A stretch of 64,000 nt of DNA from positions 23,318 to 87,317 of the forward strand of contig JAHJCT010000030.1 in assembly GCA_018812715.1 (NCBI GenBank), given 5' to 3'. Positions 3,277 through 49,011 of the stretch are shown here, piece after piece. The notes under the pieces are model-generated. The model worked only from the letters and a program-made list of their open reading frames with translations, was not told where the DNA came from and made no database searches. Numbering within the stretch: position 1 is the stretch's first letter; the number at the start of each line of letters is the position of its first letter. Position numbers and translations under genes: made by a program. The stretch is from Candidatus Micrarchaeota archaeon (GTDB lineage: Archaea; Micrarchaeota; Micrarchaeia; Anstonellales; Bilamarchaeaceae).

Positions 3277-3311
3277 CCTCAGGTAGTATGCTTAAATCAT
3301 ATTTATAAAAG

Positions 3312-3725
3312 TCACGATTTAAGTTTGGAGATTTCTCCACCGACTTCTTTGAGCTTCTTTTCAACATTTTTACTCCAGGAAACCGCTTTTATGGAAAGAG
3401 GAACTGAAACAGAACCAGTAGCAAGAACTTTACCATCGAATTCGAAAAGATATTTGTCATCTTTTTTCTTTAATTCATGTGTTATTGCTCTTTGGTTTAT
3501 CTCAAAAAGATTGATCGCATTGACCCTTGTTTTGTTTGGTCTTGAAAAGCCATGTTTGCTGTAATAGTTTTTATCAACATTCATGGCCCAGCTCCATTTG
3601 TGTTTATCGATACCTGCTTTACCTGTACCACCACGGCAACCAGATCCACGTCTATTTTTTGTATTGCCTGCTCCGTGGCTTCTTGTACCTAAGTATTTCC
3701 TTGTTTTCTTTCCTTTTCTGGCCAT
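3312..3725 (-). CDS. rpl15: 50S ribosomal protein L15 (uL15)
   Basis: GTRSHGAGNTKNRRGSGCRGGTGKAG glycine-rich N-terminus; position between L30 and SecY. Confidence 0.9.
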   Translation of the reverse strand: MARKGKKTRKYLGTRSHGAGNTKNRRGSGCRGGTGKAGIDKHKWSWAMNVDKNYYSKHGFSRPNKTRVNAINLFEINQRAITHELKKKDDKYLFEFDGKVLATGSVSVPLSIKAVSWSKNVEKKLKEVGGEISKLKS

Positions 3726-9972: not shown

Positions 9973-10283
9973 GAAACCTCAATGCTTTCTTCTGGATAAC
10001 CAAGCTTCATCAGAATGCCTGCCACTTTGTTTTTATGGTTTCCCTGAAGTATAATAATGCCTTCTTTGGCTGTTCCGCCACAAGCAAGTTTATTTTTCAG
10101 TTCTTTGGCAGTTGAGGAAAGCTGAGCCTTATCAATTCCTTCAACAATAGTAACAAGCTTTTTGAATTTTTTCTTGGTCGAGTATATCTTTATTTTCGCT
10201 GTTCCTTGTTTGTCAAGAATTTCGCATACGCAAAGATCCTTGAGCATTCCACATTTGGGACATTTATCCATTAACGTATTCAC
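9969..10283 (-). CDS. Translation initiation factor SUI1 (aIF1)
   Basis: N-terminal CPKCG...CVC zinc knuckle; VTIVEGI and KLACGGTAKEGIIILQG core typical of SUI1/eIF1. Confidence 0.85.
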   Translation of the reverse strand: MNTLMDKCPKCGMLKDLCVCEILDKQGTAKIKIYSTKKKFKKLVTIVEGIDKAQLSSTAKELKNKLACGGTAKEGIIILQGNHKNKVAGILMKLGYPEESIEVS

Positions 10284-10300
10284 CTAGTACAAATTAGCAA

Positions 10301-10483
10301 TTAGCTCTTTTTAACCCTTTTGGACGTGGGGGTTTTGAGCCTTGCTATGGTTTTTCTGATTGGTTTGACTTTATCCTTTCTTCCTTCGCCATGTAATTCA
10401 AGTATAACACGTTCAAGCTCTGCTATTTTTGCTTCTTTTTCTTTATCGCTCATGCGTTCAATATCGCTTTTTTTGATTACCAT
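10301..10483 (-). CDS. rpl29: 50S ribosomal protein L29 (uL29)
   Basis: 60-aa helical protein; KIAELERVILEL pattern; directly downstream of S3. Confidence 0.85.
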   Translation of the reverse strand: MVIKKSDIERMSDKEKEAKIAELERVILELHGEGRKDKVKPIRKTIARLKTPTSKRVKKS

Positions 10484-11208
10484 TAGCGTCTACCTCTTCT
10501 TGGTGGTTGTCTTCTTGGTGCTGATCTTTTTGGTGCTGAGTTTGTATTACCTTCATTTCGTGTTTTGTCAACACTGCTTGCTGAATCAATCACTTTTGGA
10601 AGCACAACATTTTCTGTTTTTTTATCAGGGAAAACAGTACCAGGAGGAACAATGCGAACAAGCACACCAATAATTCCAGAACGTGTATTCGCATGGATAT
10701 GGGCACTTCTTGCCAATCGTGCTGGTTCGCCAGCCTTCGGAATATAACCTGCAGATACACGAAGGCTTTTTGCCCGTGCACCCTTTGCTCCAATTTTTCC
10801 TGCAGCAACTATTTCAGCACCGAGTGCACCTGCTCTGATTATTTCTCTTAATGTATAATGAAGTACTGCACGAACTTTTTTGCCCATCTCTATATAACGA
10901 GCTGCTCTTCTTGCAACTAATCTTGGTTCAAGAAAAGGTTCCTGCACTTCAACAACACTTATCTGAGGATTTTCAATATCAAATGATTGTTTTATCGTAT
11001 CAGTAAGTTCGTTTATGAGCCTGCCTTTTTTTCCGATAATCCTTGCAGGATTAGTAACTTCAAGCGTTATTCTTGTAACTAACGGCGTTCTTTGAATATC
11101 CACATTAGCAAGCCCAGCTCTGTCCAACTTTTTTTCAAGGAATTTCATAAGCTGATATTTGCTGAATGGCTCCTCGATCAATTTTTCTTGATAAATCATT
11201 ATTATCAC
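10483..11208 (-). CDS. rps3: 30S ribosomal protein S3 (uS3)
   Basis: KH-domain IIGKKGRLINEL and GAEIVAAGKIGAKGARAKS motifs; basic C-terminal tail. Confidence 0.9.
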   Translation of the reverse strand: MIIMIYQEKLIEEPFSKYQLMKFLEKKLDRAGLANVDIQRTPLVTRITLEVTNPARIIGKKGRLINELTDTIKQSFDIENPQISVVEVQEPFLEPRLVARRAARYIEMGKKVRAVLHYTLREIIRAGALGAEIVAAGKIGAKGARAKSLRVSAGYIPKAGEPARLARSAHIHANTRSGIIGVLVRIVPPGTVFPDKKTENVVLPKVIDSASSVDKTRNEGNTNSAPKRSAPRRQPPRRGRR

Positions 11209-33737: not shown

Positions 33738-34301
33738 ATGACTGTTAAAAAAACAATACAAAGAGAAGCAACAAAACCGAGTTTAAAATCATTGGAACCA
33801 AAACTTGATGTTGATTTTCATAAGCAGAGAGTTGAGGCAATTTTAAGAAGGCATGAAAGCCTAGATTCTGCAAGAGAATTGCTGGGTTATGATATTGTAG
33901 CTGCAACATCTGATGGAGTGAAAAGAGTTAGAATTAGTAAAACACGCTCATTCAATGGTATTAGCGGGAGAACAACAAACAGAGAAGGAATAGAGCAGGA
34001 TGCTGGAATGATTTATATTATGAAATTCAGATCGACAAAATTCCTTAATATTACGACTGGAAGAGCTGGAAATCCAACATGTGTATGGATAGAAGAAGCA
34101 ATTGATGTTGATACTGGTGAGAAATTAAAAAGCAACAAATTATTGAGACATTTGGAGCTAGAAGGATCTGATCGACAGCCAATTTTTTCTGACAGAACGG
34201 CTATTGTTGCTGGTGAGACCCCAAGTAAGATTGAACGGCTTAATCCTGCCAAGAATGGTGCTTCAGAAAATACTACTGGCGTATTCCAAGCGCACTTCTG
34301 A
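33738..34301 (+). CDS. Hypothetical protein (187 aa), same strand and immediately upstream of the repeat island
   Basis: ORF only; no recognised motif. Confidence 0.45.
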   Translation: MTVKKTIQREATKPSLKSLEPKLDVDFHKQRVEAILRRHESLDSARELLGYDIVAATSDGVKRVRISKTRSFNGISGRTTNREGIEQDAGMIYIMKFRSTKFLNITTGRAGNPTCVWIEEAIDVDTGEKLKSNKLLRHLELEGSDRQPIFSDRTAIVAGETPSKIERLNPAKNGASENTTGVFQAHF

Positions 34302-34331: not shown

Positions 34332-34338
34332 TTTTTAA
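34332..34338 (+). promoter_or_regulatory. TATA-like box (TTTTTAA) for repeat-island unit 1
   Basis: Lies 25-31 nt upstream of ATG 34363 (leaderless-type spacing). The 33 nt before the ATG align position-for-position with those before ATG 37238. Confidence 0.5.
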
Positions 34339-34362
34339 GTGTTTATAGGTATATATTTGTGT

Positions 34363-35202
34363 ATGGCTAGAGGTAAACAGGTAGAATTATTGCCACCAGG
34401 AAGAGAGAGCCCTAGAACTTCAAGGAGAGAACCACTAGCTGAAGCGATTCAAAAAAGACCGCATGGATTTTTCACAAAGATGAGTGATAAAGAACTCGTT
34501 GGATATGCAAAGAGAATCATTGAAGAAAAAAAGATAAGTGGAAGGAAGGAATTACAGGAAGTTGATGGAAGTTTGTATAATGTTTTGTTGAAGAGAAATT
34601 TGCTAGATACATTTGGATTTGGAAGAAAAAAAGAGGGCAGGAATTGGAAAGCAATGACTGATGAAGAGATTGTTAGATATGCAAAGACGTTTATGAGGGA
34701 AAGAGAGATAACTGGAAGAGCTGAGGTGTACCGGGCAGATAAAGCATTGTATGAAGTTTTGAGAAGAAGAAAATTGCTGGATGAAGTAGGGTTTGAAGAA
34801 AAACAACGTGATTGGAGTTCAATGAGTGATGAGGAGATTGTTAGATATGTAAGGAAGTTTATTGAAGAAAGTGGAATAACCCGACCGAGAGAACTGCAAG
34901 ATACTAATTCTTGGTTATATGGAGTTTTGTGGAGAAGAGGGTTACTAAGAAGTATTAATTTCGATAGAAAAAGAGTTGATTGGAGTTCAATGAGTGATGA
35001 GGAGATTATTGATCATGCTAGGATGGTTATAAGAGAAAGGGAGATAACTGGGAGAGCACAATTATCAAAAGAGATTAGTGGATTGTACCACGCTTTGAAT
35101 AAAAGAAAATTGTTAGACCAAGTCTTTGCTGACATAGAACAATCAAGAAGAAAAGAAGCAATCCTGCAGGTTGTTGAGGCAATGGAGGAATTTGCATGCT
35201 AG
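34363..35202 (+). CDS. 56-aa-repeat protein A1 (4 repeats)
   Basis: Starts MARGKQVE (tracked GTG at 34339 is probably too early). Has 4 copies of W-x2-M-[ST]-DEE-[IL]-V-x-Y-A..F..E.GI.GR.EL...D.GLY.VL.RR.LLD.VGFE. Tail is IEQSRRKEAILQVVEAMEEFAC. Confidence 0.8.
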   Translation: MARGKQVELLPPGRESPRTSRREPLAEAIQKRPHGFFTKMSDKELVGYAKRIIEEKKISGRKELQEVDGSLYNVLLKRNLLDTFGFGRKKEGRNWKAMTDEEIVRYAKTFMREREITGRAEVYRADKALYEVLRRRKLLDEVGFEEKQRDWSSMSDEEIVRYVRKFIEESGITRPRELQDTNSWLYGVLWRRGLLRSINFDRKRVDWSSMSDEEIIDHARMVIREREITGRAQLSKEISGLYHALNKRKLLDQVFADIEQSRRKEAILQVVEAMEEFAC

Positions 35203-36194
35203 CTTCAAAGCAGAGAATACTTTGGACTATTCCTAAAGATCCAAAGTTTAGCTGGATTCTTCCTTTAGATAGTGCAAACAGAAGATCTTGGAGTGTAATG
35301 AGAGATCATGAACTAGTAAAATTTGCAAGGAAGTTTATGGAAGAGGAAGGGATAAACGGGAGGCATGAATTGGAGAAAGCTGATAAAGGTGTATATGGCA
35401 TTTTGTGGAAAAGGAAACTACTTGGTGAGATTGGATTTGAGAATAACCAACGAGATTGGAATTCTATGAATGATGAAGAGATTGTTGAATATACTGAAGA
35501 GTTTATGAGAGAGGGCATAAGAGAACGGGAAGAATTACGAAAAGCGGATGAAGGACTGTATGCTGCTCTATTTAGAAGGAAATTATTGGACAAGGTGGGA
35601 TTTGAGGAGAAAAGAGAAGAACGTGGTTGGACTTCAATGAGTGATGAAGAAATTGTTGGGTATGCTAAGAAGTTTATGGAAGAAAATGGAATAAGCAGAA
35701 GAGGAAAACTGCAGAAGGCTGATGGGGGGTTGTATAGAATTTTGAGAAAAAGAAGATTGCTTGATGAAATAAGATTTGAAGAGAGAAGACGGGATTGGAA
35801 AGCAATGAGTGATGAGAAACTTATTGGATATGCTAAGGGATTTATTGAAAAAGAAGAGATTGGCGGGACAAGAGAATTGATGAATGCTGATAAAGGATTA
35901 TACAGTGTTTTGAGGAGAAGGAAATTGTTGGATAAGGTGGGATTTGAAACAAAGAAAAGAGAGATGCGTAACTGGAAGGCAATGACTGATGATGAGATTA
36001 TTAAATATGCTAGAAAGACCATGGAAGAAGAAGGAATAAGTGGACGGGAAGAATTGAGGAAGGTTGATAGTGGATTGTGTAGTGTTTTGAGGAGAAGAAA
36101 ACTTCTAGATCGAGTTTTTTCTTCTATAGATCAATCAAGAAGAAGAGAAGCAATCTTGCAGGTTGTTGAAGCAATGGAGGAATTTGCATGTTAG
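35196..36194 (+). CDS. 56-aa-repeat protein A2 (5 repeats)
   Basis: ATG embedded in GCATGCTAG of the upstream stop; GGAGG 7 nt upstream. Leader MLASKQRILWTIPKDPKFSW, 5 repeats, conserved ...EEFAC tail. Confidence 0.85.
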   Translation: MLASKQRILWTIPKDPKFSWILPLDSANRRSWSVMRDHELVKFARKFMEEEGINGRHELEKADKGVYGILWKRKLLGEIGFENNQRDWNSMNDEEIVEYTEEFMREGIREREELRKADEGLYAALFRRKLLDKVGFEEKREERGWTSMSDEEIVGYAKKFMEENGISRRGKLQKADGGLYRILRKRRLLDEIRFEERRRDWKAMSDEKLIGYAKGFIEKEEIGGTRELMNADKGLYSVLRRRKLLDKVGFETKKREMRNWKAMTDDEIIKYARKTMEEEGISGREELRKVDSGLCSVLRRRKLLDRVFSSIDQSRRREAILQVVEAMEEFAC

Positions 36195-37192
36195 CTTCAA
36201 GACAGCAATTTATTTGGACTATTCCTAAAGATCCAAAGTTTAGTTGGATTGTTCCCTTAACTTCTAGCAATAATAGAGCCTGGAGGGTGATGAGTGATGA
36301 TGAGTTAGTGAAATATGCTAGAAAGTTTATAGAAGAGGAAGGGATAAAAAGAGTTGGAGAATTAAGAAGAGTCGATAAAGGATTGTATCTGATTTTGAGA
36401 AGGAGAGGGTTGATAAATGAAATCAAGTTTGAAGAGAAAATGCAGAAGAAACGTAATTGGAATTCTATGAGTGATGAAGAATTGGTTGAATATACTAAGA
36501 AGTTTGTGGAAGAGAGAAGGATAAGTGGGAGATATGAATTGGAGAAGACAGATAAAGGATTGTATCAGGTTTTAATGAAAAGAGGATTGTTGGATGAAAT
36601 AGAACTTGAGAATAAAAACCATGGAAAACGTAATTGGAAAGCAATGACTAATGATGAAGTTGTTGAACATACTAAGAAGTTTGTGGAAGAGAAGAAGATG
36701 AGTGGGAGATTTGAATTGGAGAAGGCAGATACTGGATTGTATGATGTGTTGAGAAAAAGAGGACTATTGGATGAAGTTGGATTTGAAGAAAAATATCGTG
36801 ATTGGGCTTCTATGAGTGATGAAGAGATTGTTGGATATGTAAGGAAGTTGATGGAAGAAAAAGGGATAAATGGAAGGAGAGAATTGAATAAAGCTGATTC
36901 TGGATTGTATTCTATTTTGAAGAGGAGAAAGTTATTGAATGATATAGGGTTTGAAGAGAAACAACGTAATTGGGCTTCTATGAGCAATGATGAGATTGTT
37001 GAATATGCTAAAGGATTTATGAGGGAGGAGAGAATAAAAAAGCGAAGAAAATTACGAAATGCGAACAATGGATTGTATAGTGCTTTGTGGAGAAGAAAAC
37101 TTCTAGATCGAGTTTTTTCTTCTATAGATCAATCAAGAAGAAGAGAAGCAATCTTGCAGGTTGTTGAGGCAATGGAGGAATTCTCAAATTAA
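36188..37192 (+). CDS. 56-aa-repeat protein A3 (5 repeats)
   Basis: Same junction architecture (GCATGTTAG); leader MLASRQQFIW; 5 repeats; tail variant ...EEFSN ends unit 1. Confidence 0.85.
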   Translation: MLASRQQFIWTIPKDPKFSWIVPLTSSNNRAWRVMSDDELVKYARKFIEEEGIKRVGELRRVDKGLYLILRRRGLINEIKFEEKMQKKRNWNSMSDEELVEYTKKFVEERRISGRYELEKTDKGLYQVLMKRGLLDEIELENKNHGKRNWKAMTNDEVVEHTKKFVEEKKMSGRFELEKADTGLYDVLRKRGLLDEVGFEEKYRDWASMSDEEIVGYVRKLMEEKGINGRRELNKADSGLYSILKRRKLLNDIGFEEKQRNWASMSNDEIVEYAKGFMREERIKKRRKLRNANNGLYSALWRRKLLDRVFSSIDQSRRREAILQVVEAMEEFSN

Positions 37193-37206
37193 CACTAAAA
37201 GTAACC

Positions 37207-37213
37207 TTTATAA
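37207..37213 (+). promoter_or_regulatory. TATA-like box (TTTATAA) for repeat-island unit 2
   Basis: Same distance from ATG 37238 as the unit-1 box; shared taagtgtttat...tgtATGGCTAGAGGTAAACAGGTAGAA. Confidence 0.5.
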
Positions 37214-37237
37214 GTGTTTATTTATATATAAATATGT

Positions 37238-40200
37238 ATGGCTAGAGGTAAACAGGTAGAAACACCCCTATCAAGAAACAAATTCGAAGCATTCCTCAGA
37301 GAGAACAAGCCGTTAGGATATCAAGAATATATAAAAGTAAAGAAAATTGCATTGGAGAACGGCGAAGATCCCATAAGAGAATTCCGAAAGGTCATAACCG
37401 AGACTGAAGGCCTTGGAAAAACAGTTGCCATGAATTTTTGGCTTATGGCAATAGGTAAAAGACTGGCCATACCTGAAAATGATGATGTTGTATTTCTTCG
37501 TGAGATACTGGCAAGTAATAAAATTGATCTTGATATGCTTATTGATCTTCTTGGAGGGGATCAGAGAAGAATTGCAGACGTTATATGTGCCCTGCATCTT
37601 GACAAGCTTGAAAACGCAGGGTATTCCTCAGTTTACATGATAGTAGACAAAATTATCAAAGGAAAAGCAGGAAGAAAAGGAACTCCTCCGCCCCCAGGAA
37701 AGACATTTTTTGATGATATTCCTGATGAATTGCTTGTAGGTAATATTGATGCGCTTGAGATACTGAAGGCCTATGGTATTGAGGAATACCAGAGGATGTA
37801 TCAAAATAATTATGAAGCAGCAGAACGACAACTTGAAGAAAAAATAAGAAACTGTAAAGAGCCAGGCAAAAAGATAATTCTTCAGAGTATTTATGATTAT
37901 TACAGTGAACTCAAAAAACTCAATATTCCAGGCATAGTTGATGAGACAATAGACAAAGAAACTGGTGGATTAGTTGGATTTCCGGCAGTCCATCAAAAGA
38001 TTGGGGCAAGATTTATTGCAGAAAAAAAACGGACCCTCATTGCTGATGAAATGGGGCTCGGTAAAACAGCACTGGCAGTTATTGCAAAAAATCTTATTGA
38101 AAGTGAAGAAGGAAGGAAAACAGCTGTTGCAGTTGTTCCTAATAATGTTCTTGCACAGTGGGAAGAACAAATTAATCTGTGGAATACGGAAAGAAGATCA
38201 GTAGTTGTAATAACAAGCAAGAACAAGACAGAAGCGTTAGAACAAATCGAGAGGGAGCGACCAGATTTTGTACTTGTTTCATATGATATGATTTTTAGAA
38301 AGCACAACGGAGGGACAGTGGCAAATAAATTAGAAACAATATGCGATTACCTCATCCTTGATGAAGTCCATAACACAAAAGAGGCAAAAAGTCTGAGAAG
38401 TAAAGGCGTTGTTGGACTTTCAAGAAGGGCCGAATATGTTACTTTGCTCAGTGGCACACCAGTACCAAATAGAGTAGAAGATCTAGGAGTCATTGCAAGT
38501 ATACTATGGAACCATGAATTTACTGCAAAAGATTTTAACAAAAAATTCAAACACAATCCAAGAGTAGTTAGGGAAAGAATACTTCCGAGAATGTTGAGAA
38601 GAAGGAAAAGAGATACTTTTGGGGAAGGGCAATGCACAAGACATGTCGTTGCTGTTCCAATGACGAAGCAACAAGAACAAGAACACAAAAGACTTGAATT
38701 GAACCCTGATGGAGTAGGATCTTTGGAACTCATAGCACAGCTTCGGAGATGTGCTCTTGATCCTCAATTAGTAGGAATTAGTGAAGAATCACCAAAATAT
38801 CAAAGACTTGTAGAAATGCTAGTAGACCATCATGATGATAGTCCTGCTGTTGTTTTCAGCAGTGAGCTTAAGGAAGGCGTTTTGGATAAACTTGTTGGAG
38901 AAATAGAAGGATATGGTCTTCGGGTTGCAAGAATTGATGGTGATCCAGAAAGAAGTGGAAAACACAGAGATAGAATTCTAACGGAATTTAATGAAGAAAA
39001 ATATGATGTTGTTGTAGCAACACTGGCAACCCTTGGGGAAGGAATAGACAAACTAACTGTTTCTCACCGGGGCTATTTCATAGATATTCCATTTACAGAA
39101 GCCAAACTTGCACAAGGAATAACAAGATTAGATAGAAAAGGGCAGAAGAATCCTGTTGATATCTACTTGATGGTATCGGAAAATAGTATTGACGAATTAC
39201 TATTAAGACTGATAGATCAAAAGAGAATATTGGGGGAATTTCTTATTGATGGAATGGAACTTACAGACTTTGAAAAAAGAATAATAGAAGAAGGGGAAAG
39301 GCTTGTTGAATGCGGAACAGATCCATTGAGAAAGCTTTACCGTTTCTTTGGTGCAACTTACAACAGAACTACAGAATCAGTAATAAGATTACTTGGGGAT
39401 CCGGTAATTGGAAGATTTGTTGCAGAAGAATACTGGAACAACTTTGAAGGATCATTCTATGGAAATATGAATAATCTTGTTGCCAGTGTAATCCGAGGAT
39501 TAGAGGGGGAGTTCGGTAAAATTCTAGATTTGGCATCCGGACCATGTTGTCTTGCCAGGGCTTTAGAACGACCAGTCGTATCATTAGATGCTAATGCAGT
39601 AGCGCTGGAAGTTGGAAAAAGGATGCTTGGTGAAAAAGCAGGGGAAACAGTTGTTGGAAGCTTTACAAAGTTGCCATTTAAGGAGGAAACATTTGATTGT
39701 ATAGCCTTTTCACTTGGTTTATTGCATTCTGCTGTGGATGAACGGGAAGGAATAATCAGGCAGATCAACAGGGCAATGAGAAAAGATGGGGTAGTTATAA
39801 TTACAATGCCAAGCGGGGAAGGGCGTTATGATAAATTAGCAAAAATCTTACCAATGCTTGGATTCAGGGTATTGCCAGATATGACAGGAACTGCTCAAGG
39901 AATTGACAGAACGGATTTTGAATGTACAATTATTTCTGCTGTAAAAGTAAGTGACCCTATTGTTGATAGCGTGCCGCTTGAACTTTTTGATTTCCAAAAA
40001 GATAAAATGGAAAGTGAGGACTGGGAGGCCAGTGTATCAAAAAAAGTGAAAAGAGAAGAATGTCATCAGTTTGAGATAGATGGCGTTTCAGTTGAAGATG
40101 CAAGGGTGACTATAACTCCTCCGAAAAATGAATCACAAACAGCAAGAAAAGAATTTCGTAAGCTTAAACCAAGTGAGCGTTTGGGCTTCCTTATTGATAG

Positions 40201-40399
40201 ATACAAATCGCTCACACATGTACCTCAAAAAGATTTGGATGAACTTGGAATAGAAGTTGTTAGTGTTGGAAGAGGGAATAGACAGTATTGGACTGTAGTA
40301 TTGAAAGAAGAAGCTGGAATGAACGCAGATCATAAGGCATTTGTAAATGGTAGGCCGTCTAGTGAGATAGAGAAAAGACAAAGGAGGGCGGTTAGATGA
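37238..40399 (+). CDS. SNF2-family helicase fused to a class-I SAM-dependent methyltransferase (1053 aa)
   Basis: Helicase motifs: I LIADEMGLGKT, II LILDEVHN, III LSGTPVPNRVEDL, VI QGITRLDRKGQ. Then MTase motif I ILDLASGPCCL, FDCIAFSLGLLH and MRKDGVVIITMP. N-terminal 250 aa and C-terminal 190 aa are unassigned. Confidence 0.85.
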   Translation: MARGKQVETPLSRNKFEAFLRENKPLGYQEYIKVKKIALENGEDPIREFRKVITETEGLGKTVAMNFWLMAIGKRLAIPENDDVVFLREILASNKIDLDMLIDLLGGDQRRIADVICALHLDKLENAGYSSVYMIVDKIIKGKAGRKGTPPPPGKTFFDDIPDELLVGNIDALEILKAYGIEEYQRMYQNNYEAAERQLEEKIRNCKEPGKKIILQSIYDYYSELKKLNIPGIVDETIDKETGGLVGFPAVHQKIGARFIAEKKRTLIADEMGLGKTALAVIAKNLIESEEGRKTAVAVVPNNVLAQWEEQINLWNTERRSVVVITSKNKTEALEQIERERPDFVLVSYDMIFRKHNGGTVANKLETICDYLILDEVHNTKEAKSLRSKGVVGLSRRAEYVTLLSGTPVPNRVEDLGVIASILWNHEFTAKDFNKKFKHNPRVVRERILPRMLRRRKRDTFGEGQCTRHVVAVPMTKQQEQEHKRLELNPDGVGSLELIAQLRRCALDPQLVGISEESPKYQRLVEMLVDHHDDSPAVVFSSELKEGVLDKLVGEIEGYGLRVARIDGDPERSGKHRDRILTEFNEEKYDVVVATLATLGEGIDKLTVSHRGYFIDIPFTEAKLAQGITRLDRKGQKNPVDIYLMVSENSIDELLLRLIDQKRILGEFLIDGMELTDFEKRIIEEGERLVECGTDPLRKLYRFFGATYNRTTESVIRLLGDPVIGRFVAEEYWNNFEGSFYGNMNNLVASVIRGLEGEFGKILDLASGPCCLARALERPVVSLDANAVALEVGKRMLGEKAGETVVGSFTKLPFKEETFDCIAFSLGLLHSAVDEREGIIRQINRAMRKDGVVIITMPSGEGRYDKLAKILPMLGFRVLPDMTGTAQGIDRTDFECTIISAVKVSDPIVDSVPLELFDFQKDKMESEDWEASVSKKVKREECHQFEIDGVSVEDARVTITPPKNESQTARKEFRKLKPSERLGFLIDRYKSLTHVPQKDLDELGIEVVSVGRGNRQYWTVVLKEEAGMNADHKAFVNGRPSSEIEKRQRRAVR

Positions 40400-41226
40400 G
40401 GCAGCTTCAGAAACAGAAAATTGGAAGAGATGTAAGAGCTGCAGCGAAAGGGCCATTAATTGAAGGGATAGTTCAGTTGGATAGTAGAGGAAGAAGAAAA
40501 TGGAGTCCAATGAGTGATGAAGAGATTGTTGAATATGCAAGGAAGTTTATGGAAGAGAAAGGAATAAGTGGAAGAACAGAATTGAGTATGGTTGATAGAG
40601 GATTGCATAATGTTTTGAAAAGAAGAGGATTGTTGGATGAAGTAGGATTTGAAGATAAAAGAAAAGATTGGAAAGTAATGAGTGATGAAGAGATTGTTAG
40701 ATATGCTAGAGAGTTTATGAGAGAGGAAAGGATAAGAAGGAAGGGAGAATTGTATGAAGTTGATCCTGGATTGTATTATGTTTTGAAGAAAAGAAGATTG
40801 TTGGATGAAGTGGGGTTTGAAGATAAATATCGTGATTGGAAAGAAGTAAGTGATGGTGGACTAGTTGAATATGCAAGGAAGTTTATGGAAGAGAAGGGGA
40901 TAAGTGGGAGGAAGGAATTGAAGAGAATAGATTCTGGATTGTATGAGATTTTAAGAACGAGAAAGTTATTGGATGCTATAGAATTTGAGGAGAGACAACG
41001 TGATTGGAGCTCAATGAGTGATGAAGAAATTGTTAGATATGCTAAGGAATTTGTGGAGGAGAAGGGAATAAGTAGGAGGAAGGAATTGGAGAAGGCTGAT
41101 GGAGGATTGTATGATGTTTTGAGGAGAAGGAGATTATTAGATCAAGCTTTTTCTTCTATAGATCAATCAAGAAGAAAAGAAGCAATCTTGCAGGTTGTTG
41201 AGGCAATGGAGGAATTTGCATGCTAG
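40396..41226 (+). CDS. 56-aa-repeat protein B1 (4 repeats)
   Basis: ATGA overlap with the SNF2 stop; AGGAGGG upstream. Leader MRQLQKQKIGRD...LDSRGRRKW; 4 repeats; EEFAC tail. Confidence 0.85.
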   Translation: MRQLQKQKIGRDVRAAAKGPLIEGIVQLDSRGRRKWSPMSDEEIVEYARKFMEEKGISGRTELSMVDRGLHNVLKRRGLLDEVGFEDKRKDWKVMSDEEIVRYAREFMREERIRRKGELYEVDPGLYYVLKKRRLLDEVGFEDKYRDWKEVSDGGLVEYARKFMEEKGISGRKELKRIDSGLYEILRTRKLLDAIEFEERQRDWSSMSDEEIVRYAKEFVEEKGISRRKELEKADGGLYDVLRRRRLLDQAFSSIDQSRRKEAILQVVEAMEEFAC

Positions 41227-42056
41227 CTTCTAGGCAGAGAATACTTTGGGAGATTCCTAGAAATCCAAAGTTCAGTTGGATTGTTCCCTTAACTTCTAGC
41301 AATAATAGAGCCTGGAGGGTGATGAGTGATGATGAGTTAGTGAAATATGCTAGAAAGTTTATAGAAGAAGAAGGGATAAGTGGGCTGTGGAAATTGAGTA
41401 AAGCTGATTCTGGATTATATTATGTTTTGTGGAAAAGAAAATTACTTGATAGGATAGGACTTGAAGATAAGAAACGTGATTGGAATTCAATGAATGATGA
41501 AGAACTTGTTGAGTATGCTAAGAGGTTTATGGAAGAAAATGAGATAAGTGAGAGAAGGGAATTGGAGAAGACTGACTCTGGGTTATATGGTGTTTTGAAG
41601 AGAAGAAGATTGCTGGATAGAGTAGGATTTGAAGATAAGATGCAGAAGAAACGTAATTGGAAATCAATGAGCGATGAAGAACTTGTTGAGTATGCTAAGA
41701 GGTTTATGGAAGAGAAGGAAATAAATGGGAGAAAGGACTTGTGGAAAGCTGATTCTGGATTGTATACTGTTTTGTGGAAAAGAAAATTGCTGGATAGAGT
41801 AGGATTTGAAGAAAAGAGACAGAGACAACGTGATTGGAATTCTATGAATGATGATGAGATTGTTGAGTATGCTAAGAAGTTTATAGAAGAGAATGGGATA
41901 AGTGAACGGGAGGAATTGAAGAAAGCTGATAGAGGGCTGCATCAAGTTTTGAAGATAAGAAAGCTCCTAGATACAGTTTTTGCTTCTATAGATCAGTCAA
42001 GAAGAAAAGAAGGAATCCTGCAGGTTGTTGAAGCAATGGAGGAATTTGCATGCTAG
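41220..42056 (+). CDS. 56-aa-repeat protein B2 (4 repeats)
   Basis: GCATGCTAG junction; leader MLASRQRILWEIPRNPKFSW; 4 repeats; EEFAC tail. Confidence 0.85.
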   Translation: MLASRQRILWEIPRNPKFSWIVPLTSSNNRAWRVMSDDELVKYARKFIEEEGISGLWKLSKADSGLYYVLWKRKLLDRIGLEDKKRDWNSMNDEELVEYAKRFMEENEISERRELEKTDSGLYGVLKRRRLLDRVGFEDKMQKKRNWKSMSDEELVEYAKRFMEEKEINGRKDLWKADSGLYTVLWKRKLLDRVGFEEKRQRQRDWNSMNDDEIVEYAKKFIEENGISEREELKKADRGLHQVLKIRKLLDTVFASIDQSRRKEGILQVVEAMEEFAC

Positions 42057-42877
42057 CTTCAAAGCAGAGAATACTTTGGACTATTCCTAAAGATCCAAAG
42101 TTCAGTTGGATTGTTCCTTTAGATAGTAGAAATAGAAGATCTTGGAGTGTAATGAGAGATCATGAGTTACTAAGATTTGCAAGAAAGTTTATGGAAGAAG
42201 AAGGAATACGTGGAAGGAAGGAATTGGAAAAGAGTGATAGTGTGTTGTATCAGACTTTGAAGAAAAGAAGATTGTTAGATGAGATAATATTTGAGAGAAA
42301 ACAAAGGAATTGGGAATCTATGAGTGATGAAGAATTGGTGAGATATGTTAGAAAGTTTATGGAAGAAGAAGGAATAACTGGAAAGGGAGAATTGAAGAAG
42401 GCCGATAATGGAGTGTATATAGTTTTGAGGAAAAGAGGATTGTTAGATAAATTATGGTTTGAAGAGAAACGCCGTGATTGGAATTTTGTGAGTGATGAAG
42501 AATTGGTGAGATATGCTAAGAAGTTTATGGAAGAGAGGGGGATAAGTGGAAGAAGTGAATTGAAGAAGACTGATTCTGGGTTGTATAATGTTTTGAGAAA
42601 AAGAAAATTGTCGGATGAAGTAGGATTTGAAGAAAAATGGCAGAAACGCCGTAATTGGAAATCTATAAGTGATAAGAGACTACTTAGATATACTAAGGAA
42701 TTTATAGAAGAGAGGGGGATAATCGGACGGACTGAATTGAAGAAGAGCGATGGAGGGTTGTATGAAGTTTTAAGAATAAGAAAATTATTAGATGCTGTTT
42801 TTGCTCCTATAGATCAATCAAGAAGAAAAGAAGCAATTTTGCAGGTTGTTGAGGCAATGGAGGAATTTGCATGCTAG
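42050..42877 (+). CDS. 56-aa-repeat protein B3 (4 repeats)
   Basis: GCATGCTAG junction; leader MLASKQRILWTIPKDPKFSW; 4 repeats; EEFAC tail. Confidence 0.85.
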   Translation: MLASKQRILWTIPKDPKFSWIVPLDSRNRRSWSVMRDHELLRFARKFMEEEGIRGRKELEKSDSVLYQTLKKRRLLDEIIFERKQRNWESMSDEELVRYVRKFMEEEGITGKGELKKADNGVYIVLRKRGLLDKLWFEEKRRDWNFVSDEELVRYAKKFMEERGISGRSELKKTDSGLYNVLRKRKLSDEVGFEEKWQKRRNWKSISDKRLLRYTKEFIEERGIIGRTELKKSDGGLYEVLRIRKLLDAVFAPIDQSRRKEAILQVVEAMEEFAC

Positions 42878-43530
42878 CTTCAAAGCAGAGAATACTTTGG
42901 ACTATTCCTAGAGATCCTAAGTTTAGTTGGATTGTTCCTTTAGATAGTAGAAACAGAAGATCTTGGGGTGTGATGAGAGATCATGAACTAGTTAGATTTG
43001 CAAGGAAGTTTTTGGAAGAGGAAGGGATAGGTAGTAGAGGAAAATTGGTGAAAGTGGATCCTAATTTGTATCAGGTTTTGAAGAAAAAGAAATTGTTAGA
43101 TAAAGTAGAATTTGAAGATAAGAAACGTGATTGGAAATCAATGAGTGATGAAGAGATTGTTGAGTATGTTAAGAGGTTTATGGAAGAGAAGGAAATAAAT
43201 GGGAGAAAGGACTTGTGGAAAGCTGATTCTGGATCGTATACTGTTTTGTGGAAAAGAAAATTATTGGATAGGATTGAATTTGAAAGAAAAAGAAGGAAAA
43301 CTCGGAATTGGAAGACAGTAAGTGATAATGAACTTGTTGAATATGTTAAGGAATTTATTGAAAAGGAGGGGATAAGTAAACGCGAAGAATTGAAGAAGCT
43401 TGATTATGGATTGTATAGTGCTTTGTGGAGAAGAAAATTGTTAGATCAAGCTTTTGCCCCTATAGAACAATCAGGAAGAAAAGAAGCCATTTTGCAGGTT
43501 GTTGAAGCAATGGAGGAATTTGCATGCTAG
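42871..43530 (+). CDS. 56-aa-repeat protein B4 (3 repeats)
   Basis: GCATGCTAG junction; same leader; 3 repeats; EEFAC tail. Confidence 0.85.
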   Translation: MLASKQRILWTIPRDPKFSWIVPLDSRNRRSWGVMRDHELVRFARKFLEEEGIGSRGKLVKVDPNLYQVLKKKKLLDKVEFEDKKRDWKSMSDEEIVEYVKRFMEEKEINGRKDLWKADSGSYTVLWKRKLLDRIEFERKRRKTRNWKTVSDNELVEYVKEFIEKEGISKREELKKLDYGLYSALWRRKLLDQAFAPIEQSGRKEAILQVVEAMEEFAC

Positions 43531-44516
43531 CTTCAAAGCAGAGAATACTTTGGACTATTCCTAAAGATCCAAAGTTCAGTTGGATTCTTCCTTTAGATAG
43601 TAGAAACAGAAGATCTTGGAGTGTGATGAGAGATCAGGAACTAGTTGAACTTGCAAGGAAATTCATGGAAGAAGAGAGGATATGTGGAAGGAAGCAACTG
43701 TCAAAGGCTGATATAGGATTGTACAGTATTTTGATCAGAAGAAAATTGTTGAATAAGGTTGAGTTTGAGGGAAAACAGAGAGATTGGAAAACAATGAGTG
43801 ATGCTGAACTGGTAGAATTTACAAGAAAATTTATGGAAGGAAGAAAGATATATGAGCGAAAAAAACTACAGAAACTTGATGGAGGATTGTATGAAGTTTT
43901 GAGAAAGAGAGGATTGTTGGATCAATTAGAATTTGAGGAGAAATACCGTGATTGGAAAGAAGTAAGTGATGATGGACTAGTTAAACATGCAAGGAAGTTT
44001 ATGGAAGAGAAGGGGATAAGTGAGAGAACTGAATTGAGAAAGGTAGATCTCGGATTGTACCAGGTTTTGAGAAAAAGAAAATTACTGGACAAAATAGGAT
44101 TTGAAGATAAAAGACAGAAACATCGCAATTGGAATTCAATGAGTGATGAAGAACTTGTTGCTTATGGTAAAGAGTTTATGAGGAAGAGAGGAATAACTGG
44201 ACGGCATGAATTAGAGAAGGCTGATTCTGGATTGTATCGCGTTTTGATGATTAGGGAAATTATGAATCAATTAGAATTTGAGGGGAAGCACCGTGATTGG
44301 GCTTCTATGAGTGATGAGGAGATTGTTGAGTATGCTAAGAAGTTTATGGAAGAAAGGGAGATAAGCAGAAGAGGAAAACTGCAGAAGGCTGATAGGGGGC
44401 TATATGAGATTTTGAGAAAGAAAAGATTGCTTGAAGATGTTTTTGTTGACCTGGACCAATCAAGAAGAAGAGAAGCAATCTTGCAGGTTGTTGAAGCGAT
44501 GGAGGAATTTGCATGA
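43524..44516 (+). CDS. 56-aa-repeat protein B5 (5 repeats)
   Basis: GCATGCTAG junction; same leader; 5 repeats; tail ...EEFA ending in an ATGA overlap with the next gene. Confidence 0.85.
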   Translation: MLASKQRILWTIPKDPKFSWILPLDSRNRRSWSVMRDQELVELARKFMEEERICGRKQLSKADIGLYSILIRRKLLNKVEFEGKQRDWKTMSDAELVEFTRKFMEGRKIYERKKLQKLDGGLYEVLRKRGLLDQLEFEEKYRDWKEVSDDGLVKHARKFMEEKGISERTELRKVDLGLYQVLRKRKLLDKIGFEDKRQKHRNWNSMSDEELVAYGKEFMRKRGITGRHELEKADSGLYRVLMIREIMNQLEFEGKHRDWASMSDEEIVEYAKKFMEEREISRRGKLQKADRGLYEILRKKRLLEDVFVDLDQSRRREAILQVVEAMEEFA

Positions 44517-45331
44517 GACAACTGCATGCTACTAAAATTGGAAATCCTAGAACTTCAAGAAAAGAACCTCTAGCTGAGAGAATACTTAAAAGAAGGAATT
44601 TTACTGATGAAGAAATAGGAACAATTATACAAAGAAGAACTGAACTTATTCAGCAAATGACAGACTGGAAAATAGCAACTATAATTGCACGGGAATTGAA
44701 TAGAAGCCCAAGATCAGTAGAAACTAAGATTAAAGAATTAATTAAAGACGGCACATTAGAGGAAAATCCAAACAAAAAGAAGAAACATCCTTTCAATGCT
44801 GAAGAAAATAGACAGATAGCTGAAGAACTTACAGCTTCTGGTTTATGTGATGGTGCAATAGCAAAAGTTATTGCAGAAAAAACAGGAAGAAGAGTAAGTT
44901 CTGTAAAAACAAGCATATGTGCAGACAGAAACAAAAAACGTCTTGGAAAAAATCCAAACAATCAAAGAACAATGAGATCAGAAGAAAGCAAGTGGATAAT
45001 GCGCAGAAGAAGAGAATTGATGGATCTAGGATTGAATGACACTTCAATATCAAGAGTGCTTGAATCAAAAACAAGAAATGCCAGTGCAATAAGAAGAACA
45101 ATCTGGGAGCTTAAAAAAGTAGGAATGATAATGGAAAATTATAACGATATGAAGGAAAGTAAAGAAATTGAAAGAATGATATTGAGAAGAGAAGAACTCA
45201 TGGCAGAAGGAAAAAATGATGATGAAATTGCAAAGCAAATAGCAGAGGAAATGAAAAGACAGATTAGAACTATATCATTTATGATCTGGAGAATAGTAAG
45301 AATTGGAAAATGCAGAATTAATAAAAATTAG
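44513..45331 (+). CDS. Protein with four tandem Myb/SANT-like (HTH) repeats
   Basis: 4 modules of about 60 aa, e.g. FTDEEIGTIIQRRTELIQQMTDWKIATIIARELNRSPRSVETKIKEL. Pattern [FW]-T-x-EE...W/I-x-x-IA..L.R....V resembles Myb/SANT. N-terminal PRTSRKEPLAERILKR is shared with A1. Confidence 0.6.
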   Translation: MRQLHATKIGNPRTSRKEPLAERILKRRNFTDEEIGTIIQRRTELIQQMTDWKIATIIARELNRSPRSVETKIKELIKDGTLEENPNKKKKHPFNAEENRQIAEELTASGLCDGAIAKVIAEKTGRRVSSVKTSICADRNKKRLGKNPNNQRTMRSEESKWIMRRRRELMDLGLNDTSISRVLESKTRNASAIRRTIWELKKVGMIMENYNDMKESKEIERMILRREELMAEGKNDDEIAKQIAEEMKRQIRTISFMIWRIVRIGKCRINKN

Positions 45332-46827: not shown

Positions 46828-49011
46828 TTGGTGATACTCGTGAAAATCCTGATAACTTCAGCATTACCTTATGTGAATAATGTACCGCATTTAGGCAATA
46901 TTATAGGATGTGTTTTATCTGCAGATGTTTTTGCAAGATATTGTAGGTCTAAAGGCTATGAATGCCTGTACATATGCGGAACAGATGAATATGGAACTGC
47001 AACTGAGATAAAGGCATTAGAAGAGGGAGTTACACCAAGAGAAATATGTGACAAATATTACAAAATACACAAAGATATCTACGAATGGTTTGGGATCAAG
47101 TTTGATATTTTTGGAAGAACATCAACAGAGAAGCATACGAAGATAACCCAGGATATTTTTCTTAAGCTTCATGAAAATGGATATATTATTGAGGATGATG
47201 TAGAACAATTTTATGATGAAAAAGCAGCTATGTTTCTTGCAGACAGATACATAGAGGGCATATGTAGTTATTGTAATTATGATGGAGCAAGATCGGACCA
47301 GTGTGATAAATGCGGGAGATTGTTACAACATGGAGAACTAAAAAATCCGATAAGTAAGATAACAAAAACAACTCCAGTTCTAAAGAAAACAAAACACTTG
47401 TTCATTAATCTTCCAGGAATAGAAAAAGAGTTAGGCGAATGGATAGAAAAGAGCTCTAGAGATGGATTCTGGTCTGAGAATTCAATAAATATAGCAAAAT
47501 CCTGGCTTCGTGAAGGACTGAAAAAAAGGGCAATAACAAGAGATTTGAAATGGGGGGTTCCTGTTCCGCTGAGGGGGTGGGAAAATAAGGTATTTTATGT
47601 CTGGTTTGAGGCCCCGATAGGGTATCCATCTATTACTGCAAATCTTACTGAAAAATGGGAAGGGTGGTGGATGAATCCAAACGAAGTAAAGCTATACCAA
47701 TTCATGGGAAAGGACAATGTACCATTTCATACTGTAATATTCCCTTCAACACTTATAGGAACAAAGCAGCCATGGACATTGCTCCATCACATAAGCACTA
47801 CAGAATTCCTTAATTATGAAGATGGAAAATTCTCAAAATCAAGGCATGTGGGAGTATTTGGTGATGATGCGATGAAATCCGGCATCCCAAGTGATGTCTG
47901 GAGATATTATCTTCTTGTAAACCGTCCTGAAAAAGCAGACACTGTATTTACGTGGGAGGATTTTGCTGATAAGACAAATAATGAATTGCTTGCTAATCTT
48001 GGAAATCTTGTGAACAGGACACTTATATTTTTGAAAAATAATTTCGATGGGAAGATTCAGGGTGGAGAAAATGAAACAGATAAACAATTCCTTGAACAAC
48101 AACAAAAGATTGTAAACGAAATTACTGAAGATCTGGAAAAGGTCAAACTCAAAGACGCTCTTCACAAAATAATGCACTATTCCAAAAATGCAAACAAATA
48201 TTTCCAGGATAATAAACCATGGGAAAGTGTAAAGAATGATAAAGAACGTGCAGGAGTAGTCTTAACCGTACTTACAAATCAGGTAAAGGATCTTGCAATA
48301 ATGATAGAACCATATCTTCCGGATACGAGCAAGAAAATATTTGAACAGTTGGATGTAGAACCGGGCAAATGGAAAGACATTGGAAAACCATTGGCTGAAG
48401 GACATGAAATAGGTTCTCCAAAACCACTTTTCAAAAAAGTTGAAGAAAAAGAACTCAGTGAATTAAGAAAGAAATTTGCGGGTAAAGAAAAGGAGGAAAT
48501 AAAGTTCTCAGACCTTGATCTCGAAGTTGGAGAGATTATTAGTGCAGAAAGGCATCCGAATGCAGACAAATTGTTCATTGAAAAAGTGAGATTAAGTGAT
48601 GGGGAAAGGCAGATAGTTTCTGGCCTTGCTGACCATTATTTTCCTGAAAATTTGGTTGGAAAGAAAGTTGTGATTGTAAAAAATCTTGCCACAGCAAAGC
48701 TTAGAGGAGTAGAGTCTCATGGCATGCTTTTGGCTGCAGAAGGAAGAGAAATGGCCCCAATGCACGACGGAAAATCTGCTATGGAAAAAGAAGTGGTAGA
48801 AGTAATTTTCTGTGAAAATAGTAAAGTTGGCAATAAAGTTTTCCTTAAAGGCGAGAAACAAAAACCAAAAGAAACAGTAACATTCAAAGAATTCCAGAAA
48901 ATAAAGATTGAAGTACTTGATTATTATATTTTATCGGAAGGCAAATCTATCATAACTGAAAGTAATGAAGAGCTTAAGATGAAAAATGTGAAAAAGGGAA
49001 TTGTTACATGA
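46828..49011 (+). CDS. metG: Methionyl-tRNA synthetase with C-terminal tRNA-binding (EMAP-like) domain
   Basis: SALPYVNNVPHLGN (HIGH), zinc knuckles CSYC...CDKCG, KFSKSRH (KMSKS). C-terminal LEVGEIISAERHPNADKL OB-fold. Start may be GTG 46840. Confidence 0.95.
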   Translation: MVILVKILITSALPYVNNVPHLGNIIGCVLSADVFARYCRSKGYECLYICGTDEYGTATEIKALEEGVTPREICDKYYKIHKDIYEWFGIKFDIFGRTSTEKHTKITQDIFLKLHENGYIIEDDVEQFYDEKAAMFLADRYIEGICSYCNYDGARSDQCDKCGRLLQHGELKNPISKITKTTPVLKKTKHLFINLPGIEKELGEWIEKSSRDGFWSENSINIAKSWLREGLKKRAITRDLKWGVPVPLRGWENKVFYVWFEAPIGYPSITANLTEKWEGWWMNPNEVKLYQFMGKDNVPFHTVIFPSTLIGTKQPWTLLHHISTTEFLNYEDGKFSKSRHVGVFGDDAMKSGIPSDVWRYYLLVNRPEKADTVFTWEDFADKTNNELLANLGNLVNRTLIFLKNNFDGKIQGGENETDKQFLEQQQKIVNEITEDLEKVKLKDALHKIMHYSKNANKYFQDNKPWESVKNDKERAGVVLTVLTNQVKDLAIMIEPYLPDTSKKIFEQLDVEPGKWKDIGKPLAEGHEIGSPKPLFKKVEEKELSELRKKFAGKEKEEIKFSDLDLEVGEIISAERHPNADKLFIEKVRLSDGERQIVSGLADHYFPENLVGKKVVIVKNLATAKLRGVESHGMLLAAEGREMAPMHDGKSAMEKEVVEVIFCENSKVGNKVFLKGEKQKPKETVTFKEFQKIKIEVLDYYILSEGKSIITESNEELKMKNVKKGIVT

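Follow-up and report, generated by a model that had tools for sequence, protein, structure and literature searches.

Overlapping, probably coupled junctions and probable lineage-specific homogenisation of gene ends in a tandem array of Micrarchaeota repeat-protein genes

Introduction

When the stop codon of one gene overlaps the start codon of the next and a Shine-Dalgarno (SD) sequence lies within the upstream gene, the arrangement gives termination-reinitiation coupling, as experiments in Haloferax and Escherichia coli have demonstrated (Huber et al. 2019, Nat Commun, PMC6728339). Archaea with many leaderless transcripts use the SD sequence mainly for reinitiation, and the coupling signals known experimentally span a few to tens of nucleotides, not some 180 nt (PMC6728339). 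Here, we describe a locus with junctions of this kind in a 64-kb stretch (hereafter, the window) of the genome of a Micrarchaeota, a DPANN archaeon. The array region (about 34.3-45.4 kb) is made of two operon-like units, in which eight tandem paralogs of an uncharacterised helical-repeat family (A1-A3 in unit 1 and B1-B5 in unit 2) lie around a gene encoding an SNF2 helicase fused to a methyltransferase.

The array resembles the coupled overlapping pairs described so far (PMC6728339; Front Microbiol 2023, PMC10666635) in that its genes are co-directional, their stops and starts overlap, and an SD sequence is found inside the 3' end of the upstream open reading frame (ORF) at normal spacing (7-8 nt, at eight of eight starts). 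As in the pairs of leaderless-transcript archaea, the leader genes of the units lack an SD sequence. The array differs from these pairs in that six of its junctions are 7-nt ATGCTAG overlaps instead of the common 4-nt ATGA or 1-nt TGATG, in that its genes are paralogs of one another and not subunits of a known complex, and in that their coupling is a prediction from sequence.

The paralogs can also be compared with those prokaryotic gene families that undergo concerted evolution by gene conversion (Commun Biol 2018, PMC6053082). As in these families, segments of the window paralogs are closer within than between genomes, some pairs share identical tracts of their own, and synonymous and nonsynonymous divergence are reduced in parallel. 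Unlike in these families, homogenisation is limited to the terminal modules of the proteins, the internal repeats being saturated. We consider it likely that the genes are joined by coupled overlaps and that the extra conservation of their junctions reflects constrained protein termini together with gene conversion or duplication specific to this lineage, rather than selection for coupling. The junction would thus bring together two known processes, SD-assisted stop/start coupling and a concerted evolution restricted to the ends of tandem paralogs.

Tandem-repeat genes are also known to vary in repeat number, for example those of surface or adaptor proteins. Our comparison loci were three metagenomic contigs with arrays or neighbourhoods of repeat genes (L001, L003 and L005); two further loci (L006 and L007) hold a single-copy homologue outside any array and are uninformative on junctions. 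Like tandem-repeat genes that evolve by unequal recombination, the window genes vary in the number of repeats (3-5 each), L003 has near-identical repeats indicative of recent expansion, and L005 has truncated or chimeric copies. Unlike such genes, those of the window encode proteins that look cytoplasmic, are linked to an SNF2-methyltransferase, and have no relative in Pfam or PDB.

Results and discussion

Overlapping junctions and their predicted translation

The 19-mer GGAGGAATTTGCATG(C/T)TAG is present at exactly six sites in the window (35184, 36176, 41208, 42038, 42859 and 43512) and was never found in the 100 dinucleotide-preserving shuffles that gave the chance expectation. At these sites the ATG of the downstream gene (35196, 36188, 41220, 42050, 42871 and 43524) overlaps the upstream stop codon by 7 nt, as ATGCTAG or ATGTTAG. 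Two more junctions, between the SNF2 gene and B1 (40396) and between B5 and the last gene of unit 2 (44513), are 4-nt ATGA overlaps. A GGAGG lies 7 nt before the six ATGs with 7-nt overlaps and before 44513, and 8 nt before 40396. The motif scan and the ORF boundaries thus bear out what the original prediction said of the six-site motif with its upstream GGAGG; they also agree with its account of the two ATGA overlaps, each preceded by GGAGG, and with its claim that the codons for MEEFAC double as the SD sequence and overlapping start of the next gene.

Each internal gene would accordingly start inside the end of its predecessor, with an ATG that overlaps the upstream stop (ATGCTAG, 7 nt, or ATGA, 4 nt) and an SD sequence, GGAGG, that would be spelled by conserved C-terminal Met-Glu-Glu codons (ATG GAG GAA). 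Because an overlap combined with an intragenic SD sequence is the architecture shown to couple genes elsewhere, the internal genes are most likely translated by SD-assisted termination-reinitiation, i.e., by translational coupling. In L001, L003 and L005, all junctions are ATGA overlaps. In L001 and L005, whose tail peptides are not alike, SD-like motifs are again encoded by the tail codons, 4-11 nt ahead of the ATGA: the tails ..KEFGGSE and ..KEFGEKK of L001 give GGTGG and GGTGA, and the tail ..SEKPEVGVA of L005 gives GGAGG and GGAG.

It had also been pointed out that every junction steps the reading frame by -1. The series of start coordinates modulo 3 is as described (1,0,2 in unit 1 and 2,1,0,2,1,0,2 in unit 2), but the step carries nothing beyond the overlap lengths, since 7 and 4 nt are both 1 modulo 3; the ATGA junctions of relatives step by -1 likewise.

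TATA-like elements occur in the array only at 34332 and 37207, ahead of the first genes of the two units (A1 and the SNF2 gene), and neither of these genes is preceded by an SD sequence, which suggests transcripts that are leaderless or have a very short leader. There is no intergenic space between the paralogs, and each unit would form one transcript, i.e., an operon. Elsewhere in the window, a GGAG, GAGG or GGTG core stands 3-11 nt ahead of the start in 28 of 66 long ORFs, among them those of a ribosomal-protein-like operon with AGGTGA. Internal genes outside the array likewise have SD motifs, and leader genes have a TATA-like box and no SD sequence.

Synonymous divergence around the junctions

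The junctions were described in the original prediction as far more conserved than the gene interiors, over some 66 nt before and 160 nt after the start. Counts of variable sites match this span (3-7 per 30 nt from -63 to -4, 8-13 from -3 to +146, and 16-23 elsewhere). The span over which synonymous sites are conserved is a slightly different one. We computed synonymous (pS) and nonsynonymous (pN) divergence by Nei-Gojobori counts on gapless codon alignments of the window paralogs and placed the limits of the low-pS zone with a sliding window. In the upstream gene the zone starts at codon -26 (some 78 nt), and in the downstream gene it ends at codon +35 (some 105 nt); from about +105 to +160 conservation is at the amino-acid level only (pN 0.06-0.15, pS 0.5-0.7). 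On the forward strand of the window, the six zones are at 35121-35301 (J1, around ATG 35196, holding the 19-mer 35184-35202 with the SD GGAGG, ATG and TAG), 36113-36293 (J2, 19-mer 36176-36194, with ATGTTAG), 41145-41325 (J3, 19-mer 41208-41226), 41975-42155 (J4, 19-mer 42038-42056), 42796-42976 (J5, 19-mer 42859-42877) and 43449-43629 (J6, 19-mer 43512-43530).

The synonymous sites of the junctions are more conserved than those of the gene interiors, as had been anticipated: pS is 0.24 in the zone and 0.57 outside (pN 0.09 and 0.26, respectively), a difference in pS reached by none of 10,000 codon-label permutations. Codons for invariant amino acids give similar values (pS 0.26 for 41 codons in the zone versus 0.65 for 28 codons outside). 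The junctions are therefore more conserved at the nucleotide level than amino-acid conservation explains. The zone nearly coincides with the two modules that end one protein and begin the next, i.e., the C-module (24 codons, eight copies; pS 0.245, pN 0.074) and the N-module (31 codons, six copies; pS 0.237, pN 0.121). Divergence is much higher in the adjacent first repeat (pS 0.583, pN 0.227), in the adjacent last repeat (pS 0.599, pN 0.262), and over all repeats compared all-against-all (pS 0.587, pN 0.260). Repeat 1 offers an internal control: in its codons 45-52 (FMEEEGI), pN is 0.06 and pS 0.72, against a pN of 0 and a pS of 0.24 in the last 16 codons of the C-module.

The C-module, the N-module and the repeats have pN/pS ratios of 0.30, 0.51 and 0.44, respectively. 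The two measures thus fall together, as expected of a younger common ancestry and not of an added constraint on silent sites. This is one of the observations that speak against the further proposal of the original prediction, in which selection on coupling or a recombination site would lie behind the conservation (some 180-220 nt); the others are the mosaic tracts, the C-module of A3, the within-genome similarity of C-modules, the junctions of L001, and the negative result for RNA structure.

Mosaic tracts and a syntenic control

Identical tracts are shared by different pairs of paralogs. The longest (95 nt) is common to A3 and B2 and runs from the N-module into repeat 1 (36242-36336), followed by 94 nt between J4 and J6, 79 nt between the ends of A2 and A3, and 70-71 nt between J1 and each of J4, J5 and J6. 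The boundaries of the tracts differ between junction pairs. A permutation over 212 variable sites, of the type of Sawyer's GENECONV tract test, returned runs of 35 concordant variable sites for J2/J3 (global p<0.0005), a stretch that includes the 95-nt tract, and of 18 for J4/J6 (p=0.01). The C-module of A3, a gene with no coupled downstream paralog, has a pS of only 0.07-0.13 to those of A2, B1 and B3 and is among the closest.

The amino-acid identity of C-modules is 0.70-0.91 within genomes versus 0.29-0.55 between them (0.86 within the window versus 0.29-0.51 between it and the other genomes), and the pS of C-modules between genomes is 0.51-0.79. For the repeats, identity is 0.52 within versus 0.41-0.49 between genomes (window, L001 and L005), L003 being the exception with 0.82 within; in the test that gave 0.86 for the C-modules of the window, the repeats had 0.52 within versus 0.43-0.49 between genomes and so lacked the concerted pattern. 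The contig L001 is syntenic with the array and has ATGA junctions with SD motifs, and its pS is saturated at both gene ends (C-module: pN 0.09, pS 0.70; N-terminus: pN 0.13, pS 0.67); in L005 the dip in pS is intermediate. Hence coupled junctions of this family need no conservation of silent sites, and a low pS is specific to certain lineages. We regard L001 as the decisive control on whether selection for coupling would cause the extended conservation, and its sequence argues that it would not. More generally, when synonymous divergence falls locally where two genes meet, a functional RNA element is not necessarily the reason; here a syntenic relative provided the control.

These patterns most likely reflect a history in which both protein termini, i.e., the C-terminal helix (VF.I[DE]Q...QVVEAMEEF) and the N-terminal module, would be under strong purifying selection across the family, in which the junction cassettes would have been homogenised or recently copied between the paralogs of this lineage by gene conversion or unequal crossing-over, and in which the older internal repeats would have diverged to saturation. 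The sequence anatomy, the synonymous-site pattern, the mosaic tracts and the differences from the relatives are direct observations, whereas transcription as operons, coupling and the conversion mechanism are inferred from them.

Alternative explanations

The same zone could be a functional nucleotide element of about 180 nt under purifying selection, such as an mRNA structure or sequence that enforces coupling or sets the stoichiometry of the paralogs. Synonymous divergence is 2.4-fold lower exactly over the junction, only three sites vary in the 30 nt upstream of the ATG, an SD motif in the tail codons recurs in three lineages, and just 3' of the SD sequence there may be an invariant 8-bp hairpin (UGCAGGUU/AAUUUGCA) that extends into the first base of the AUG. 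Such an element would not account for a pN that drops with pS and leaves their ratio unchanged, for conservation that takes the form of pair-specific mosaics instead of falling on the same sites in all copies, for a terminal C-module (A3) that is equally conserved with no coupled partner, or for the saturated pS (0.67-0.70) of the ATGA+SD junctions of L001, and it would be far longer than the coupling signals of a few to tens of nucleotides known from experiments (PMC6728339). RNA structure at the junctions was rejected, as RNAalifold detected no covariation in the six copies and the single-sequence fold was no more stable than shuffles (z = +0.48). We therefore judge a functional element of this length to be quite unlikely. 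It is somewhat less difficult to envisage that there was no ongoing conversion at all: the 7-nt junction would have arisen once, the array would have grown recently by unequal crossing-over with breakpoints in the repeats, and the cassettes would simply be younger than the repeats that flank them. This agrees with the unchanged pN/pS, with a junction type (MLAS, see below) unique to this contig, with the block shared by J2 and J3, which runs from the N-module into repeat 1, and with the fact that some interior repeats are also recent copies (e.g., B2r3 and B4r2, 95% identity). Yet crossing-over within repeats should have duplicated the adjacent repeat halves as well, and nearly all pairs show saturation of the positional first and last repeats (pS 0.58-0.60). 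The C-modules of A3 and B5, which lack the derived junction, belong to the same homogeneous set, and several exchange events would be needed for different pairs to share different tracts. This explanation, which differs from the one we favour only in the timing and mechanism of homologous exchange, we hold to be unlikely.

The junctions could also be programmed -1 frameshift sites, or the array could be read through into a fused polyprotein, which would make the uniform -1 step functional. As in programmed -1 frameshifting (dnaX, IS elements), the ORFs are in a -1 relation at every junction and an SD-like GGAGG lies upstream; SD-like elements are known to stimulate frameshifting in some bacterial genes, and elsewhere two neighbouring genes of the family appear to be naturally fused in frame (P0072, see below). 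Unlike in those systems, there is no X_XXY_YYZ heptamer in GAG GCA ATG GAG GAA TTT GCA TGC, no downstream stimulatory structure was found by RNAalifold or by the z-score of the fold, and each junction has a canonical ATG with a correctly spaced SD sequence; moreover, a TGA closes the downstream frame seven codons ahead of each ATG, which leaves an open stretch of only 21 nt, and the ATGA junctions of the relatives produce the same step trivially. Frameshifting and a fused polyprotein were rejected on these sequence grounds, and we consider them extremely improbable. The array, or part of its regularity, could also be an assembly artefact, if the reads of fewer real copies had been collapsed, or joined wrongly, where the junction is repeated. 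The source contig (113,779 nt) is metagenomic, and exact tracts of up to 95 nt are common to the junctions. Against this, each of the eight genes is an intact ORF that has its own repeat content and many substitutions found in no other copy, the exact tracts are shorter than 100 nt and thus below the typical read length, and arrays of the same kind are found in independent assemblies (L001 and L005), which makes an artefact very improbable.

Several points count against our preferred explanation, that of coupled overlaps with constrained termini and lineage-specific conversion or duplication. The limits of the low-pS zone are almost exactly those of the two non-repeat modules, and a functional nucleotide element would predict the same. 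With only three variable sites, the 30 nt that precede the ATG hardly vary, and some selection on the SD sequence and start context (from about -30 to +10) may add to the pattern, an effect that these data do not separate from conversion. A recent burst in which junction-containing segments were duplicated, their flanking repeats being replaced afterwards, is likewise not cleanly distinguishable from conversion. The sample is small (six to eight non-independent copies, each with about 35 synonymous sites); the order and number of genes in a repeat array could carry errors, as the window stems from a metagenome assembly; and both the operon structure and the coupling were deduced from the nucleotide sequence.

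Origin of the 7-nt junction

The 7-nt junction appears to be a lineage-specific derivative of the ATGA junction usual in the family. The N-module that starts with MLAS in the internal genes aligns in frame with the N-terminus of B1 (KQKI/KQRI, K.P/KDP and IVQLDSRGRRKW/IVPLDSRNRRSW). In addition, the heptamer AGCTTCA is common to the junctions and to the ATGAGGCAGCTTCAG of B1, where it is read in a different frame (ATG AGG CAG CTT CAG in B1, ATG CTA GCT TCA in the junctions). Small indels just after an ancestral ATGA may have destroyed the TGA, so that the upstream ORF would have become one codon longer, ending at TAG, and the derived junction would then have been copied to six places. Among 64 homologues, the MLAS-type N-module is present only in this contig, which fits a young junction type copied to six places. 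In metagenome contigs of the Joint Genome Institute (JGI), the junction DNA pattern ATGGARGARTTYGCATGYTAG had no match, and the peptide patterns VEAMEEF and W[TE]IP[KR][DN]PK revealed no relatives.

A family of repeat proteins linked to an SNF2-methyltransferase

The paralogs share one plan: an N-module, 3-5 repeats of 56-59 amino acids (form WxxMSDEEIVEYAKKFMEEKGISGRxELxKADSGLYxVLRKRKLLDEVGFEEK), and a C-module (form VFxxIDQSRRKEAILQVVEAMEEFAC) that is a helix in the structure model. The N-module of the six internal genes is MLASKQRILWTIPKDPKFSWIVPLDSRNRRSW; A1 and B1 carry a different, canonical-type N-terminus. In five of the eight copies the C-module opens with a run of five or six T (at 36115, 37113, 41148, 41977 and 42798; GTT TTT, Val-Phe). 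These runs resemble archaeal oligo-T terminators, but they are inside coding sequence and not in all copies.

All homologues with a source name are hypothetical proteins of Candidatus Micrarchaeota. In a profile search the family comprised about 800 clusters at 50% identity, with proteins of up to 1360 amino acids. No Pfam, NCBIfam or PADLOC family matched the repeat protein above its cut-off, and there were only matches below threshold, e.g., DUF7026 (22.6 bits versus a cut-off of 28). In the AlphaFold model of B4 (predicted local distance difference test, pLDDT, 81.6; predicted template modelling score, pTM, 0.38), there are three 3-helix units, the C-module forms part of a long C-terminal helix, and the N-module is poorly predicted. 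This model had no match with E<1 in a Foldseek search of PDB, and a search of PDB sequences with the repeat profile gave only a spurious match to a designed repeat protein. The repeat may resemble the haloarchaeal "homing endonuclease associated repeat" (Pfam HNH_repeat), a likeness that no tool result supports and that we do not claim. The paralogs lack a signal peptide and look cytoplasmic.

The 1053-amino-acid gene between the two groups of paralogs encodes, according to its Pfam matches, an SNF2-family helicase fused to a class I S-adenosylmethionine (SAM) methyltransferase (Methyltransf_11). Compared with the helicases of defence systems (DrmD of DISARM, ZorD of Zorya and DpdE of Dpd), it had only generic helicase-core matches (NCBIfam: DrmD, 49.8 versus 610 bits; ZorD, 26.3 versus 1500), and no partner gene of DISARM, Zorya or Dpd was found among the ORFs of the window. 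With scores far under the curated cut-offs and the partners absent from the window, we rejected the assignment of the locus to a known defence system containing SNF2. Orthologues of the SNF2-methyltransferase adjoin repeat genes in the Micrarchaeota contigs L001 (6714-9899) and L003 (11237-14416), as it does in the window (37238-40399), and this conserved neighbourhood matches no known defence system. The order in L001 is three repeat genes, the SNF2-methyltransferase and one repeat gene, and that of L003 is similar; a methionyl-tRNA synthetase (MetRS) gene is near the locus in both the window (46828-49011) and L001 (94-2250). L005 has at least seven tandem paralogs and no SNF2 gene. A scan of contigs from GTDB genomes by alignment to the SNF2-methyltransferase retrieved only an irrelevant Xanthobacter helicase.

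What is new here is the gene family and its recurrent linkage to the SNF2-methyltransferase in Micrarchaeota, the mechanisms at the junction being already known. We find the locus more interesting than the junction: helical repeats of about 56 amino acids associated with Micrarchaeota, with conserved end modules, in probably coupled tandem arrays beside an SNF2-methyltransferase. If the paralogs were adaptors of this enzyme, the arrays could show how genome-reduced DPANN archaea target a remodeller or methyltransferase, which is speculative. A bolder conjecture, to which we give little weight, is that the junction cassette (C-terminal docking helix, stop/start overlap and N-module) would act as a portable block of homology with which whole in-frame repeat genes are added, deleted and reshuffled. 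This would yield variable, equimolar, coupled adaptors for the SNF2-methyltransferase, i.e., a cassette-type diversification of a chromatin- or nucleic-acid-targeting machine.

The relatives offer further observations on the family. In L001, a divergently transcribed protein of 223 amino acids without repeat units (2896-3567, reverse strand) ends with ..GVKQVVEAMNEFDSKK, the C-terminal motif of the repeat proteins, which hints that the C-terminal helix may be a shared docking peptide; its homologue in L003 (9367-9933) lacks the motif. In the 846-amino-acid homologue P0072, a complete C-module (VFARIDNEGIKHAVNDVIGAVSDFGD) precedes, in the same frame, a segment resembling the N-terminus and further repeats; two neighbouring genes of an array seem to have fused naturally, or the junction was miscalled. 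Internal repeats of the L003 gene at 10001-11173 are about 82% identical in amino acids, with several identical units, which indicates very recent expansion or homogenisation, unlike the saturated repeats of the window. Truncated or interrupted copies lie inside the ATGA-linked array of L005 (5989-6390 and 6660-7205) and are probably decaying or recombined paralogs.

Layout of the two units

In the ORF table, A1-A3, the 1053-amino-acid gene, B1-B5 and the last gene are all on the same (forward) strand. Unit 1 opens with a TATA-like promoter element (AAGTGTTTATAGGTATATAT..., 34332-34362) directly upstream of ATG 34363, with no SD sequence upstream. A1 (34363-35202) has the canonical N-terminus of the family (..PRTSRREPLAEAIQKR), four repeats, and a C-module ending in MEEFAC. 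It is followed by A2 (35196-36194), with the N-module MLASKQRILW, five repeats and a C-module, and by A3 (36188-37192), which ends with MEEFSN* and has no coupled downstream paralog. For the first gene of unit 1 the reading frame is retained and the start adjusted: ATG 34363 (MARGKQVE, in the same frame) is likelier than GTG 34339, because this start and the TATA-like element are common to the SNF2 gene.

Unit 2 opens with a duplicate of this element (37207-37237), followed by the SNF2-methyltransferase gene (37238-40399), which begins with MARGKQVE like A1. The two 5' ends form a 55-nt direct repeat (34332-34386 and 37207-37261, 87% identity), with a TATA-like box before the same start, ATGGCTAGAGGTAAACAGGTAGAA (MARGKQVE). 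Beyond their identical first eight codons the two proteins are unrelated, and the duplicated element and codons suggest a segmental duplication of the 5' end. Then come B1 (40396-41226; canonical-type N-terminus MRQLQKQKIG..., ATGA overlap with the SNF2 gene), B2 (41220-42056) and B3 (42050-42877), both as in the ORF table, B4 (42871-43530; three repeats) and B5 (43524-44516), which ends with MEEFA*, its stop falling inside the ATGA where the following gene starts. That gene (44513-45331), the last of unit 2 and labelled "HTH" in the original prediction, has a canonical family N-terminus (MRQL..PRTSRKEPLAERI, 79% nucleotide identity to A1 at 34411-34458) and lacks a C-module. It contains four different repeats of about 60 amino acids, with a weak match to HVO_A0114 below the cut-off.

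Just upstream of unit 1, a 187-amino-acid ORF (33738-34301) has GGAGG before its start and a match below threshold to methylpurine/3-methyladenine DNA glycosylase (Pfam, 19.3 versus a cut-off of 27 bits; NCBIfam, 25.2 versus 249). Long antisense ORFs run across the repeat genes, on the reverse strand, both in the window (35306-36022, 36565-37068, 40133-40540 and similar ones) and in L005 (8043-8732 and 9946-10863); they are most likely a by-product of purine-rich, stop-poor repeats and not genes.

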